DNA of 6,129 nt, from contig NC_017460.1 in assembly GCF_000237865.1 (NCBI RefSeq), positions 1 through 6,129 of the forward strand, given 5' to 3'. This DNA comes from Haloquadratum walsbyi C23. Lineage in GTDB: Archaea; Halobacteriota; Halobacteria; Halobacteriales; Haloferacaceae. A program made the position numbers and the translations under genes. Positions 1 through 6,042 of this stretch are shown in pieces (position 1 is the first letter of the stretch; every line of letters begins with the position of its first letter). The notes under the pieces are model-generated. The model was not told the origin of the DNA and did not search any database. It saw nothing but the letters and a program-made list of their open reading frames with translations.

Positions 1-106
1 CCTGATCAGCAACGCCGGACAACGATTAAGTATCATGCGGGAATGATACCAGATAGGCAAAGAAGTAACTCAAAACTTGAAAGCATCCTTTGGGAGAAGG
101 ACGCCC

Positions 107-133
107 CTGAAGGGACACCCCACGTCCCTTCAG
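107..133. other. Perfect 10-bp inverted repeat with a 7-nt spacer (CTGAAGGGAC-ACCCCAC-GTCCCTTCAG), either a hairpin or a dimeric-protein binding site
   Basis: The arms 107-116 and 124-133 are exact reverse complements. An inverted repeat this long is expected well under once by chance in 6 kb. It lies in the non-coding leader of the forward module. Confidence 0.6.
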
Positions 134-134
134 A

Positions 135-236
135 ATGAACCCACCTTTGGTCGGGCTGTTGGTTCAAGTGCTCTTTCTCTCGCTGACGACAAGTATCTTA
201 CTGAGAACGTCAGTCAGTCGAATACCAGTCGTATAA
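135..236 (+). CDS. Candidate 33-codon micro-ORF encoding a hydrophobic single-pass peptide (MNPPLVGLLVQVLFLSLTTSILLRTSVSRIPVV)
   Basis: ATG at 135 and TAA at 234-236, translated by hand. It has a 19-residue hydrophobic core. The ATG lies 2 nt after the 10-bp-stem inverted repeat at 107-133. It is below the ORF-track length cutoff, and I see no promoter or SD support. Confidence 0.2.
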   Translation: MNPPLVGLLVQVLFLSLTTSILLRTSVSRIPVV

Positions 237-272
237 CGTCAGATTGTACCGATAACGACCGTGTTAGTCGTC

Positions 273-380
273 TTGCGTCAACTTGCGCAAGGTTGCACGG
301 TTATGTGTCAACTTGCACAGTGCCGTGCAAAGTCGCACGAGTGAGTGCAAATCTGCGAGGGACGTGCGCATGAGTGCGAA
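273..380. repeat. Helically phased TTGCRC / GTGCAA hexamer array with a dyad centre near 321/322
   Basis: TGCR cores are at 274, 284, 294, 314, 326, 346, 354, 365 and 375, all close to multiples of about 10.1 bp. Degenerate copies are at 304 and 334. TTGCAC at 293 and 313 mirrors GTGCAA at 345 and 325, and both pairs are centred on 321.5. A 13-mer GTCAACTTGCRCA occurs at 277 and 307, 30 bp apart. The array ends on the ATG at 370. Confidence 0.75.
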
Positions 381-1263
381 CCCTCACAGAGACGCCGAGA
401 AACGTGCTCAATACGTCGCGAGGACGACCGACCTCGACCATCGCAAGGCACTCGCACTCGCCTATTCCGAGCAAGGGTGCAGTGAACGCGGGATTGCTGA
501 TAATATCGACTCGACCAAAGGCACCGTCTCAAATTATCTCGACGAGATCGGCGAGCGATACGGTCCCGAGACGGTCGTCGCGACCGGCATCGCCGAGAAA
601 GAGGACCTGACGCCGGTCGAAGAGCAACCGACGAAAGGACCGCTGGAGACCATCGACGCCGGTCGTAAAGTCGTCCTTGAAGGAGAGAGTCGAGGACCGC
701 ACACTGTTGAACGATACTTCCGCACATGGGTGCGAGACGGTCGGATTCATCGAGATGCAAAACTCGCACTCTCACTACATGATCACGGCGACGGGGACAC
801 ACGAGACCGTCTCAGTAATCTCGAATGGGACGCACACCACTGCACATACGACCCTGATTATACTTTTGTGAGTGCTGGCGAGAGTCGCGGCTGTTGGACC
901 TTCGATACTGACCCCGTGACTCTCAATGCCATTCGTGAGGTCGTGCATGTCCCGCCTCTCGATACGACGCCTCTTGTCGCCGAGACTCTCCCTCGTCGTG
1001 AGGACCTCGACCCATTCGAGTGCATTAATCCTGATTGCTCAGTCAACGAGGCACACTCAGGTCTCGACCTTCGTGCCTATCCGAGTCTCGGAGGTCCCGC
1101 AATCGAAATTACCGAGATGACAGACTTCGAGACCGTCTCGCACGTCTGTCTTGAGTGCCGGTCGTTGTTTACACCCGTGCCGGTCGGCGTGCCTGATCAG
1201 GAGAACAACGGCGACGAGGACAACGAGGACGACGATAACGTGCTCGTGGAGGCAATGCAATGA
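370..1263 (+). CDS. Acidic DNA-binding protein (297 aa from ATG 370) with an N-terminal helix-turn-helix, a C-terminal Cys4 zinc-ribbon-like motif and a poly-acidic tail
   Basis: This is the long ORF 283-1263 of the track. I prefer ATG 370 because the TTG-283 extension is basic and translates the hexamer repeat array. The HTH is about nt 439-549 (HRKALALAYSEQGCSERGIADNIDSTKGTVSNYLDEI). Cys pairs are CINPDC (1021-1038) and CLEC (1147-1158). The tail is DQENNGDEDNEDDDN. The stop TGA 1261-1263 overlaps the next ATG (ATGA). Confidence 0.8.
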   Translation: MSANPHRDAEKRAQYVARTTDLDHRKALALAYSEQGCSERGIADNIDSTKGTVSNYLDEIGERYGPETVVATGIAEKEDLTPVEEQPTKGPLETIDAGRKVVLEGESRGPHTVERYFRTWVRDGRIHRDAKLALSLHDHGDGDTRDRLSNLEWDAHHCTYDPDYTFVSAGESRGCWTFDTDPVTLNAIREVVHVPPLDTTPLVAETLPRREDLDPFECINPDCSVNEAHSGLDLRAYPSLGGPAIEITEMTDFETVSHVCLECRSLFTPVPVGVPDQENNGDEDNEDDDNVLVEAMQ

Positions 1264-3006: not shown

Positions 3007-3257
3007 CGACCCTCACGCGACATCTGACCGCCTTCGAGGGTCCCCTTTCGTCGTGATCGGTGTGGTGCGCGTCGAGATCGGCGTCAGTGCTGGTTTGGAA
3101 TTTGGTGCGACTCACCGGACTCGCTGTTAGGGGTGTGCCTAAGGGCACAACATCAAAACACATACCGTAGTTTTGCTCGCGCAAAAATTTCTACACACAA
3201 TATCACTCGTGATGTTGTCTCGTTCGGAGCTCCAATTGAGAACGAGACTGCACACTC

Positions 3258-3489: not shown

Positions 3490-3538
3490 AGAGAAAAGAC
3501 GACAAATAGAGTTCTATTTCTGTCGATAGGTACAGATT

Positions 3539-3601
3539 AAACGTTTTCAAACGTTGATTATACGTTTAATTTTACACGGTCATTACACGGTTCTACACGG
3601 T
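3539..3601. repeat. Six consecutive 10-11-bp-phased direct repeats (iteron-like): 3x (A)ACGTT followed by 3x TACACGGT
   Basis: ACGTT occurs at 3541, 3551 and 3562. TACACGGT occurs at 3573, 3584 and 3594, giving spacings of 10, 11, 11, 11 and 10. The first half is AT-rich (GATTAAACGTTTTCAAACGTTGATTATACGTTTAATTTT). The repeats lie in non-coding DNA between convergent genes. Confidence 0.8.
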
Positions 3602-3625
3602 CACATGTCTGTGGCGCCTGCTCAC

Positions 3626-4133: not shown

Positions 4134-4979
4134 TTAGTCGTCGGCAGTGGCTTCGGTGGTGTCGGTCGTATCCGGCATCTCTGTGTACTTGTCAACCCAT
4201 GATTGGGACATATCGACAACATCAGCAACCTCGTATGTGGAGAGTCCTTTTTCTCGTGCCCGTTGTGCATCTGATACTTTTTGCTCGTGTTCTACTTCTT
4301 CAGGGTCTTTTGTGGTCTCATCTTCAATATTGACAAGTTCGTTTGCATTGAACTCATCAGATGATAGTAGTGCATCTTTTTTCTTTGTGATTGCCTGAAA
4401 ATACGGGTCATCTAATGCGTCGAGATTCGGAAAGGCAACCCGTTGCACATCGTTGTATGATTCGGTTCGCACATCGCCTCTATCAAATGTTGATGTGACT
4501 TTGTACGGTCTGAAGTATCCTATCGGTCTCTCAAGACACCACAGACGATAATCAGCACTTCGGCGTAACCGCTTATCGGCATCACTCCAGTGGGGCAATG
4601 TGCAGATCGTAACAATCCGTTTCTTGCGCATCAATTGCCAACTTCTGCCTAAGTTCACATTCTCATTACTCATCGAGCGTCGTGCATCGCCGGCACCGGC
4701 ACCCGCGAGTTCATCGAGAACAATTACACTCGGTTGCTCCTTGCTAGGATGTTCCCGCCATCTCTCCAAATACTGTTCCCCACTCAGGGTGAAGTCTCTC
4801 GGTGACAATTGATAGTCAAATGCCTTAGAGACCGCCAAAGCGGTGGAGACGGCGGCTGTCGTTTTCCCGACGCCGGTGGCTGAGTTCTCTGAGTCGCAGA
4901 TAATACGAGCACCACCAGATCGGGGACCGAAAACCCCGTGCATCAAATCATCCCAAAAGTCGGTGTCTCTCAGATGCAT
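4134..4979 (-). CDS. P-loop NTPase (ASCE/AAA-like core) with an acidic linker and a C-terminal helix-turn-helix (281 aa)
   Basis: Walker A is SATGVGKTT (nt 4857-4883). Walker B is VIVLDE (nt 4710-4727). A hydrophobic strand ending in polar residues (RIVTICT) lies about 35 residues later, in a sensor-1-like position. The C-terminal HTH is SDAQRAREKGLSTYEVADVVDMSQSWVDKYT (nt 4182-4274). The ATG lies 2 nt after the upstream stop. Confidence 0.9.
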   Translation of the reverse strand: MHLRDTDFWDDLMHGVFGPRSGGARIICDSENSATGVGKTTAAVSTALAVSKAFDYQLSPRDFTLSGEQYLERWREHPSKEQPSVIVLDELAGAGAGDARRSMSNENVNLGRSWQLMRKKRIVTICTLPHWSDADKRLRRSADYRLWCLERPIGYFRPYKVTSTFDRGDVRTESYNDVQRVAFPNLDALDDPYFQAITKKKDALLSSDEFNANELVNIEDETTKDPEEVEHEQKVSDAQRAREKGLSTYEVADVVDMSQSWVDKYTEMPDTTDTTEATADD

Positions 4980-4981
4980 TA

Positions 4982-5653
4982 TTAGATTAAATCTGAGTAA
5001 TCAAACTCAGCAATCTCGCTGGTATCATCGGAGAGACCGACATCAAGCCCGATTTCTAGGAGCACATCATTTGCGATTTTAAACCCACTATCAAGCACAT
5101 CGACCGGCAGTGCTGAGAGTTCTGTTTCACCCAGTGGGTCGCCAGTGTGAGACGGTCGGTCAAATGGTGAATCCTCCCACTCCATCGCTATGCCGTCTCT
5201 ATTTGTTGGCTTGCGAATGTCGTTGTACTCATGCCACTCGCGAGCGACAACAATATCTTGTTGAATTAACTGGACAAGTCCGGTAATCTCAATTTGTCGT
5301 CGGGGCAATATCTCAGCGGGTTTGCTGAGTGTTGGCTCCTTCTCGATGTGTTCGTCTAGTGTGATGTTATAGACGTGCCTATCGTACCACACATCCTCGT
5401 GTTGAGATTGAAGAATTACGGGGCGAATATCCAGCAAGAATGAATCAAGAACGGCTTTCAGTTGGGTTATTGCTTGCACGTTGCCAACTTCGCCACTTTT
5501 GCGGGCTGATTCAACATCGGCACGAGTTTTGATGTACTGCGACCGATAGTTGAGAATTTCTTTCACCCGCTGGCGTTTCACATCGCCGTCGTCGTCATTG
5601 ATCGAAAGCCGATTATCGTCTATGCCGTCGGTGGTGTCATTCGTGCCCGACAT
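4982..5653 (-). CDS. Acidic hypothetical protein (223 aa), tightly coupled to the downstream ATPase
   Basis: ATG start. It has a disordered acidic N-terminus (DGIDDNRLSINDDDGD), a predicted long helical segment and an acidic/hydrophobic C-terminal tail (EIAEFDYSDLI). The TAA at 4984-4982 is separated by 2 nt from the ATPase ATG (4979). It has its own promoter-like motif 25 nt upstream. Confidence 0.85.
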   Translation of the reverse strand: MSGTNDTTDGIDDNRLSINDDDGDVKRQRVKEILNYRSQYIKTRADVESARKSGEVGNVQAITQLKAVLDSFLLDIRPVILQSQHEDVWYDRHVYNITLDEHIEKEPTLSKPAEILPRRQIEITGLVQLIQQDIVVAREWHEYNDIRKPTNRDGIAMEWEDSPFDRPSHTGDPLGETELSALPVDVLDSGFKIANDVLLEIGLDVGLSDDTSEIAEFDYSDLI

Positions 5654-5691: not shown

Positions 5692-6042
5692 TTAAATGAA
5701 CATGATTAGTTCATTGATGAAGATAATCAAAAGTGAAATCGTAATCACTACACCACCGACAAGACGGATATTGCGGTTTATGCTGTTTACATCCTCAAAT
5801 TGCTCACGGAATGGTTTGTTTGGATCAATGCTTGATTCTTGAATTTCATTGAGTTGTGTGAGTATCTGTTCGTGATCGGACTCTATCTTGTCGGTAACAT
5901 CGTCACCGTTCACGGACTCAAGCCCTTCGCGGACAAGTCGCCTCATACCTTCAGATTGTGAGATGTCATTACGGGCAACGTATGCATCAACATCGCGGGC
6001 AATATCTTCATCAAGTCGTGTTTGATACCGTTCGCGTGGCAT
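5692..6042 (-). CDS. Ribbon-helix-helix (CopG/Arc/MetJ-type) DNA-binding protein with a C-terminal transmembrane anchor (116 aa)
   Basis: The N-terminus ERYQTRLDEDIARDVDAYVARNDISQSEGMRRLVREGLE fits the strand, helix, loop, helix RHH pattern (nt about 5908-6042). An acidic linker follows. The C-terminus LVGGVVITISLLIIFINELIMFI is a hydrophobic helix (nt about 5695-5763) running to the last residue. Confidence 0.85.
   Translation of the reverse strand: MPRERYQTRLDEDIARDVDAYVARNDISQSEGMRRLVREGLESVNGDDVTDKIESDHEQILTQLNEIQESSIDPNKPFREQFEDVNSINRNIRLVGGVVITISLLIIFINELIMFI

Follow-up and report, generated by a model that had tools for sequence, protein, structure and literature searches.

The 6129-bp window analysed here is the complete pL6-family plasmid pL6A of Haloquadratum walsbyi, and the element of interest is an array of short tandem palindromes that occupies the 3′ third of the annotated F1 coding sequence, just upstream of F2 and of F3, the gene for the replication initiator (Rep). 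An earlier note on the same sequence had described this region as a series of hexamers on one face of the DNA helix, which flips orientation about a single dyad centre and runs into the first codons of F2. All of the hexamers listed there are present and the observation is real, but it was mis-described, and can thus be considered partly confirmed. The nearest plasmid records are pLT53-7 and pBAJ9-6, which share approximately 85% identity with pL6A across the replication module, while the F3 of PL6B is 97% identical to that of pL6A; a search of IMG/VR yielded essentially no pL6 relatives. The features of the F1-F3 region on which the following paragraphs draw are:

77-373, plus strand: F1, a leader open reading frame (ORF) with a TTG start, the last third of which is the array (ORF analysis; PMC5974055, PMC11431627)
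273-352, plus strand: the array proper, four tandem 20-nt units (alignment, pattern and periodicity analyses)
273-290, plus strand: unit 1 palindrome, TTGCGT-CAACTT-GCGCAA (alignment)
293-310, plus strand: unit 2 palindrome, TTGCAC-GGTTAT-GTGTCA, inner four pairs retained, one of them as G·U
313-330, plus strand: unit 3, a perfect palindrome, TTGCAC-AGTGCC-GTGCAA, centred on 321.5
333-350, plus strand: unit 4 palindrome, TCGCAC-GAGTGA-GTGCAA (alignment)
354-362, plus strand: conserved TGCGAGG(G/T)A containing GAGG (357-360), which resembles a Shine-Dalgarno sequence and precedes the F2 ATG by 5-9 nt (alignment)
370-1263, plus strand: F2, the ATG of which (370) overlaps the F1 stop codon as ATGA (gene map; PMC5974055)
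1260-2963, plus strand: F3, a DUF7845 protein belonging to Rep-Arvir, a family of rolling-circle replication initiators (domain match; PMC13107129)

Each unit of the array consists of a left arm TTGCAC (offsets 0-5), a 6-nt spacer, a right arm GTGCAA (offsets 12-17) and a 2-nt linker, with unit boundaries at 273-292, 293-312, 313-332 and 333-352, and the 4-mer cores GCAC and GTGC alternate, one per 10 nt. In unit 1, pair 5 is G-C in pL6A and A-T in the type B relatives introduced below, a compensatory change, while pair 6 is U·G. The tetramer TGCR occurs nine times in positions 273-380 (at 274, 284, 294, 314, 326, 346, 354, 365 and 375), against a mean of 1.07 per 108-nt window, with nine as the maximum for the plasmid; the hexamers are non-random. 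The recurrence at about 10 nt is borne out, with the periodicity power of TGCR peaking at 10.0-10.2 nt (6.9-7.2 of 9), a value matched by 0.2% of random placements (P ~0.002). When up to two mismatches are allowed, the full palindrome TTGCAC-N6-GTGCAA has three matches in the plasmid, all within the array, against 0.26 expected, and 0/200 shuffles reach three. No extra array sites are found elsewhere in the plasmids, the lone additional GCAC-N6-GTGC, observed in three plasmids, being one conserved coding site in R6.

The single flip of orientation about position 321.5 does not hold, as both orientations alternate along the whole array. Any tandem array of palindromes has such centres of symmetry, and 321.5 is therefore merely the centre of unit 3. 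The hexamers originally selected correspond to three left arms (units 1-3) and two right arms (units 3 and 4), and the two cores set aside as degenerate, GTGTCA (305) and TCGCAC (333), are the remaining arms. The cooperative head-to-head oligomerisation of a protein about one dyad that had been proposed is thus replaced by a different architecture, a tandem series of palindromes. The extension of the array to the start of F2 must also be withdrawn. The hexamer at 353 belongs to the Shine-Dalgarno-like sequence, GTGCGC at 364 is missing from the type B relatives, and GTGCGA at 374 falls within F2 codons 2-3 and is specific to pL6A. The interval 353-369 contains no palindromic unit, but holds the conserved Shine-Dalgarno-like GCGAGG(G/T)A, and a GGAGGTGA-like motif precedes the F2 ATG in every lineage, irrespective of whether the array is present. 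The distance from the end of the array to the F2 ATG is 19 nt in pL6A and 16 nt in type B. A start of F2 at TTG-283, which would make the region simply coding, can be rejected, given that stop codons close this frame at -3 (type B) and -39 (pLT53-7) and that all gene calls and 22 homologues begin at the ATG.

Relatives were sampled by collecting F2- and F3-linked contigs, including metagenomic contigs, which are referred to here by L-numbers. Orthologous units were identified in pLT53-7, pBAJ9-6 and six metagenomic contigs, and the array is limited to two sublineages. Type A comprises pL6A, pLT53-7, L003 and a partial copy in L032, while type B comprises pBAJ9-6, L005 (identical to L033 and L034), L006, L007 and L018, with type B units 1, 2 and 4 reading TTGCACCAACTCGTGC. 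The array is absent from L004, L010, L011, L019, L024, L025, L013, L022, L023, L071 and L072. The absence from L004 takes the form of a clean deletion, although the F2 of this contig is 81% identical. Three betapleolipoviruses were checked (HRPV-3, HGPV-1 and HRPV-11), none of which has an array upstream of its replication module, and tandem pattern scans of a viral contig collection and of one genome per species produced chance-level matches only, none of them haloarchaeal. In view of this patchy distribution and the scan results, the array is a lineage-specific, dispensable accessory rather than a family-wide essential site. A dispersed repeat family is ruled out by the same chance-level matches and by the fact that the only extra site represents R6 codons.

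Several further sequence features were observed in and around the leaders of these relatives. In the two "no F2" contigs, L071 (730-1026) and L072 (60-368), an in-frame fusion joins the 5′ half of F1 to the final ~30 codons of F2 (…CRTLFTPVPVGVPDQ…VLVEAMQ*), and the stop codon of the fused ORF still overlaps the F3 ATG; a single deletion has removed the array together with nearly all of F2. Two of the array-less contigs each carry one palindrome at -98 relative to the F2 ATG, TTTGTC-AATTCC-GACAAA in L010 (~797-814) and TACGTC-AATTCC-GACGTA in L011 (~1351-1368), with a conserved loop and compensatory arms. Just 5′ of the array in pL6A, positions 200-270 contain the direct repeats AACGTCAG, present twice (206 and 235), and CAGTCGAATA/CAGTCGTATA (215 and 226), which are partially conserved in relatives, including the array-less L004.

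Alignment with the relatives showed that the arms are conserved, while the spacers and linkers vary. Among the eight sequences compared, the mean pairwise difference is 0.18-0.21 in the arms, 0.31 in the spacers and 0.54 in the linkers; permutation of the labels yields P = 0.0006, with phase 0 scoring best among the 20 possible. Between pL6A and pLT53-7, 4/60 arm positions differ as opposed to 14/30 spacer positions. The two array types share the unit number, the phase and the distance to the ATG despite ~30-40% divergence of the flanks, and the 14-nt core of type B is changed at 3/210 positions versus a difference of ~21% in the 5′ part of F1. Both observations count against the notion that the array is without function, having arisen by slippage as a tandem duplication of a short palindrome in the poorly constrained F1 and being occasionally deleted. 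The occurrence in just two sublineages, the clean absence from L004 and from the "no F2" plasmids, and the three type B units that are near-identical even in their loops, as after recent duplication or gene conversion, would all fit such a neutral repeat, as would the published view of the direct repeats as a cause of deletions (PMC11431627, Supplementary text S1a). The selective conservation of arms over spacers and the compensatory changes described below would be unexpected for such a repeat, and a neutral origin is accordingly considered improbable.

The conservation of the array also does not reflect the protein encoded by F1. Differences in the F1 frame are distributed evenly over the three codon positions, both within the array (0.24/0.25/0.26) and over the whole of F1 (0.31/0.24/0.29), while F2, which served as the control, shows the expected third-position excess (0.11/0.075/0.32). 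With this positive control, conservation of the array as the coding sequence for the F1 C-terminus is ruled out, and the proposal that selection acts on the region as a cis element, and not as ordinary coding sequence, is upheld. Within F1, the relatives are separated from one another by indels of 1-2 nt. The frame is nevertheless open in all relatives, for 74-108 codons in nine diverged leaders (P 0.005-0.07 each by dinucleotide shuffling), an in-frame NTG codon (TTG, ATG or GTG) is found at one alignment column, and the F1 stop codon invariably overlaps the start codon that follows, including in L004, with its array deletion, and in the F1-F2 fusions of L071 and L072. The open frame, the NTG column and the stop/start overlap, together with the lack of a codon signal, therefore suggest that F1 serves as a leader ORF that is translated without selection on its peptide, and its translation is likely to be coupled to that of F2 and F3 by termination-reinitiation. 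The F1 proteins have been described as basic and diverse, with no predicted structure (Dyall-Smith & Pfeiffer 2024, PMC11431627).

The repeats themselves have already been published. Direct repeats of 16-27 nt were reported in the distal half of F1, from nt 199, including three copies of TTGCACCAACTCGTGCA in the F1 of pCOLO-c1, and were interpreted solely as coding repeats that bring about deletions in F1 (PMC11431627, Supplementary text S1a). The pCOLO-c1 repeats are type B units of the present array and thus represent the same feature. The palindromes, the 20-nt phasing, the conservation of arms over spacers, the absent codon signal and the strand-specific pairing do not form part of that account (PMC11431627); the palindromic anatomy, the non-coding conservation, the pairing signature and the proposed functional reading are new.

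The pairing signature became apparent when four intra-unit hairpins were imposed on the alignment. In this register 87% of cells are paired and the covariation score is 0.202 versus 0.142 in shuffles, with 0/500 shuffles reaching 0.202, where it should be noted that the eight distinct sequences fall into two clades and that the shuffle statistics are uncorrected for relatedness. In helices 1, 2 and 4, the inner four pairs remain paired in every sequence, although 6/12 of them vary. Every one-sided change among them is of the kind that produces G·U on the plus strand. Pair 5 has undergone two independent compensatory double changes, one in type A (unit 1, A-U to G-C) and one in type B (unit 3, A-U to C-G). 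The parsimony count is ~11 events of the G·U type versus two of the A·C type. The plus strand has no background bias for C>T/A>G changes (51 vs 47 in F2 and 9 vs 16 in the 5′ part of F1), which rules out mutational bias as the source of the G·U excess. The G·U-type pattern, the compensatory doubles and the lack of a background bias together favour pairing of a single strand over pure recognition of double-stranded DNA. An alternative register, with hairpins formed between neighbouring units, pairs 81% of cells but lacks covariation and is disrupted by the compensatory changes, and was rejected. The asymmetry of the spacers had previously been taken to exclude RNA hairpins. Each unit, however, itself forms a 6-bp stem with a 6-nt loop, and the argument is not supported.

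The best reading of the array is that it forms plus-strand stem-loops in an mRNA leader, which modulate the coupled translation of F2 and Rep, although this is put forward tentatively. On the plus strand, the 20-nt unit would fold into a stem-loop with a GCAC/GUGC core, two weaker A-U pairs and a loop of 6 nt, and four such stem-loops would be situated in the last third of F1, just upstream of the Shine-Dalgarno-like motif of F2. Ribosomes probably pass from F1 to F2 and on to Rep (F3) by termination-reinitiation, the second stop/start overlap serving the latter step. By themselves or together with a bound factor, the stem-loops would restrict or regulate the ribosome flux to F2 and Rep, or the fate of the mRNA, and the outcome would be an accessory, lineage-specific control of Rep dosage and copy number. 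We infer both this regulatory effect and RNA, rather than displaced single-stranded DNA, as the form in which the pairing takes place.

A number of observations weigh against this reading. All units have one common stem sequence, which is not needed for pairing alone and therefore points to sequence-specific recognition by something. Of the two G·U transitions permitted in the central pairs, just one is observed (C to T at right-arm position 4), and the left arm tolerates less change than the right. Ribosomes translating F1 would melt stems of such short length, and minimum-free-energy folds of single sequences often choose long-range pairings between units. The loop of type B, CAACTC, is nearly invariant (spacer difference 0.014), while the type A loops drift. 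The array is missing from most pL6 lineages and from L004, so that any function is dispensable, and with a small sample split into two clades the strength of the pairing signature is modest. Positions 1-400 have no match in Rfam 15, the sole match in the window being a chance-level snoRNA at 5005-5074. A more specific version of the proposal, in which F1, with an irrelevant peptide, and four hairpins of identical stem gate reinitiation into F2 and Rep, possibly because F2 or another plasmid protein binds the hairpins sequence-specifically, is rather unlikely to be correct as a whole. If true, it would constitute an archaeal counterpart of the bacterial leader-peptide/stem-loop control of copy number, constructed from a tandem array of hairpins.

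The remainder of the leader is also structured (z = -4.5). Two further features lie upstream of the array:

18-29, plus strand: promoter motif GACAACGATTAA with TTAA at 26-29, equivalent to CIS I of PMC5974055 (motif scan)
92-181, plus strand: structured leader element, a long composite stem, retained in relatives without the array and in the "no F2" contigs

The family-wide conserved structure of the leader is the element at 92-181, which falls inside the annotated F1 coding sequence, and not the array. It includes a perfect, covarying 10-bp hairpin at 107-136 (CTGAAGGGAC/GTCCCTTCAG), with up to three pair types per position. On the plus strand, the haloarchaeal promoter motif SRnnRnnnTTWW occurs at 18-29 only, from which a transcription start near position 54 is predicted, and an equivalent motif is located ~350 nt upstream of the F2 ATG in 6/6 plasmids. 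The motif scan found no plus-strand promoter motif inside or next to the array in these six plasmids, and the array is situated ~220-300 nt downstream of the sole conserved promoter motif and predicted start.

Three other sequence features touch on transcription of this region. A perfect 7-6-7 palindrome, GTATCAT-GCGGGA-ATGATAC, is located at 30-49 directly 3′ of the TATA-like TTAA (26-29), in the divergent promoter region; it is only partly retained in pBAJ9-6 and not in pLT53-7 or L005, and may represent an operator at the real promoter. In L001 and L002, the conserved AEKRAQ codons of F2 (+31 to +42) contain a promoter-like motif on the minus strand, G(A/G)GCACGTTTTT. This motif at +42 is found in 2/6 plasmids only, with the corresponding site in pL6A (398-409) being one mismatch off, and, if active, it would give rise to an antisense RNA running from near the F2 start codon back across the array. 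Antisense reads have been reported for other pL6 plasmids (PMC11431627). Another minus-strand promoter-like motif is found at 263-252, near the 5′ side of the array.

The main rival to the stem-loop reading is a double-stranded DNA operator, in which dimers of a helix-turn-helix (HTH) protein, most plausibly F2, would bind cooperatively to the tandem 18-bp palindromes, which share a helical face, their period of 20 bp being equal to approximately two helical turns. The bound dimers would obstruct RNA polymerase on its way from the upstream promoter, with autoregulation of F2 and Rep as the result. F2 comprises an N-terminal four-helix HTH resembling the LuxR/NarL type, a β-rich middle part, CxxC motifs and an acidic tail. 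A structural model derived from a 22-sequence alignment has a mean pLDDT of 64, with values of 80-87 for residues 10-60. The N-terminal domain of this model superposes on the DNA-binding domains of LiaR, NarL, DegU and TraR over 41-48 residues, with a root-mean-square deviation of 0.7-1.0 Å and a probability of ~1, though with E-values of only 0.1-0.8, and F2 also has weak sequence matches to the MarR and LuxR families. This HTH-like fold keeps the operator model, and with it the autoregulatory operator of the earlier note, alive, although the array does not overlap the sole conserved promoter motif. The same half-site sequence repeated in all units in a strict 20-bp phase, four times over, arms that are conserved next to spacers that are free in type A, and the direct abutment of the array on F2 are all in keeping with an operator. 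The array has, furthermore, never been seen without F2, both "no F2" contigs lacking it, and the asymmetry between left and right arms would suit a site that is read asymmetrically.

Several lines of evidence are difficult to reconcile with an operator. It would be situated ~220-300 bp downstream of the only conserved promoter motif, with none inside it, and the model provides no reason for one-sided arm changes that are all of the G·U type on one strand, or for two of the changes being compensated. The changes in the two arm halves are not independent, being either of the G·U type or compensatory, and since the type B spacer is nearly invariant as well, the conservation of arms beside free spacers gives a mixed picture for an operator. 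Unit 3 of type B has arms that are off consensus (CTGCCG/GGGTAA), yet still pair. F2 proteins with a near-identical HTH and the same recognition helix are found in L004 and at least five further lineages that lack the array, and pLT53-7 combines a type A array with a type-B-like F2 N-terminus, and the two do not co-vary. Additional sites in the plasmids are also lacking, the R6 coding site being the single extra match. A double-stranded operator is viewed as somewhat unlikely, though as the strongest of the rivals.

The earlier note had also suggested an initiator-loading site or a partition or centromere-like site. A feature that bears on the first of these lies beyond the array, downstream of F3:

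3127-3161, plus strand: Rep-Arvir origin motif TTAGGGGTGTGCC-TAAG-GGCACAACATCAAAACAC, with a stem at 3134-3139/3144-3149, 164-198 nt past the F3 stop codon

The DUF7845 proteins were characterised in 2026 as Rep-Arvir rolling-circle endonucleases, and the origin of SNJ2, for which rolling-circle replication with single-stranded DNA intermediates was shown, consists of a variable inverted repeat and a conserved hairpin 150-200 nt downstream of rep (PMC13107129). The motif of pL6A was aligned by eye with those of HRPV-3, HGPV-1, HRPV-11, pLT53-7 and pBAJ9-6, and its stem contains one compensatory pair, C-G to G-C, relative to HRPV-3 and HGPV-1. Positions 3127-3161 are therefore the probable double-strand origin, with the nick-site hairpin, of pL6A, and are not so described in the pL6 papers cited here.

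A nick hairpin downstream of F3 disfavours the loading of an initiator at the array. Tandem repeats of ~20 bp near replication genes, here four 20-bp units ~0.9 kb upstream of F3, are reminiscent of iterons, which measure 19-22 bp, and of the parC centromere of pSK41, with its 20-bp repeats and hence a similar period. F3 is, however, a rolling-circle endonuclease with the origin motif of its family at 3127-3161, and the array is absent from most replicons that have the same Rep and is also missing upstream of the rep modules of HRPV-3, HGPV-1 and HRPV-11. No AT-rich unwinding element was found adjacent to the array. Its neighbours F2 and F3 are replication genes rather than partition genes, there was no match to ParA or ParM, and Pfam yielded only a weak AAA match for R6. 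An iteron origin, an initiator-loading site or a partition centromere is consequently regarded as highly improbable.

A different role in replication would be for the structured region 55-370 of the displaced strand, array included, to act as a single-strand origin or as a signal for priming or protecting the lagging strand. F3 is a Rep-Arvir protein and the nick-hairpin motif is kept in pL6A, and the strand-specific tolerance of G·T would suit single-stranded DNA as well as RNA. The single-strand origins of bacterial rolling-circle plasmids are dispensable, orientation-specific and cassette-like, and these traits are in line with the patchy distribution of the array. The known ones are, however, long and irregular hairpins rather than a tandem series of small ones, and the array is located inside an ORF of the rep operon rather than in a non-coding stretch beside the origin. 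It lies ~2.8 kb upstream of the double-strand origin motif, which corresponds to ~3.3 kb of leading-strand synthesis if the plus strand is the one displaced, and the structure that is conserved family-wide is that at 92-181. Third-position strand skews were uninformative as to which strand is displaced. A single-strand origin or related signal at the array is given a slim chance. Elsewhere, the F3-R7 intergenic region contains AAACGTT repeats within an AT-rich stretch and, after these, an 11-nt sequence repeated three times in tandem, TTACACGGTCA (3572-3603), and this region (3510-3605) is a candidate single-strand origin or regulatory site.

The plasmid is completed by four genes on the opposite strand, as given in the published gene map (PMC5974055, PMC11431627):

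3645-3971, reverse strand: R7
4134-4979, reverse strand: R6
4982-5653, reverse strand: R5
5692-6042, reverse strand: R4

The array shares features with several known regulatory systems. Leader regions control rep expression in a number of bacterial plasmids, including the repC attenuator of pT181, the RNAII target of pMV158, and the leader-peptide coupling of tap-repA in R1 and repY-repZ in IncB plasmids. As in these leaders, stem-loops are placed between the promoter and the replication genes of pL6A, with control of Rep dosage as the likely function. As in the coupling of the R1/IncB type, a short leader ORF, of which the translation rather than the product would matter, ends in a stop/start overlap with the next gene. 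The bacterial leaders contain one or two distinct stem-loops or a pseudoknot, whereas the pL6A array consists of four near-identical tandem mini-hairpins and is archaeal, dispensable and lineage-specific, and a minus-strand promoter-like motif that might drive a countertranscript is present in only 2/6 plasmids. Rep-Arvir is structurally related to Rep_trans, the family of the pT181 Rep (PMC13107129).

Operators recognised as double-stranded DNA resemble the array in their dimensions. The ARG boxes of ArgR are pairs of 18-bp palindromes 2-3 bp apart, and the TyrR boxes have the form TGTAAA-N6-TTTACA. The array shares with these the 6-bp arms, the 6-bp spacer, the 18-bp palindrome, the 2-bp gaps and the placement on one helical face. 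The ArgR and TyrR operators, in contrast, overlap promoters and are bound by hexameric regulators, while the array overlaps no promoter motif and its arm substitutions look like those of a pairing single strand. Palindromic boxes of the LuxR/TraR type, such as the tra box ATGTGCAGATCTGCACAT, have the same core layout as the junction between units, GTGCA-N4-TGCAC, and the F2 N-terminus is modelled with the same HTH fold. This likeness is restricted to a short TGCA-type core, however, with the inter-unit register showing no covariation and F2 being widespread without the array. The bacterial REP/BIME elements are clusters of short imperfect palindromes within transcription units that fold as RNA hairpins, and the array is similarly a cluster of short palindromes in a predicted transcription unit. 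REPs are, in contrast, dispersed in many copies over host genomes, while the scans for the array gave matches at chance level only.

The pL6 plasmids are abundant in Haloquadratum, one of the dominant organisms of salt-saturated brines, and it was not until 2026 that their Rep family was established as a rolling-circle initiator. The probable double-strand origin at 3127-3161 can now be separated from the F1/array region, and the annotated F1 is argued to act as a translated leader rather than to encode a conserved protein. The finding would be an ordinary one should the array prove to be a plain operator or a neutral repeat. Positions 273-352 represent a compact and mutable cis element, which most likely tunes the expression of F2 and Rep, and as such may be of relevance to copy-number control and translational coupling in archaeal rolling-circle replicons, as well as to the design of vectors of the pL6 and SNJ2 types.

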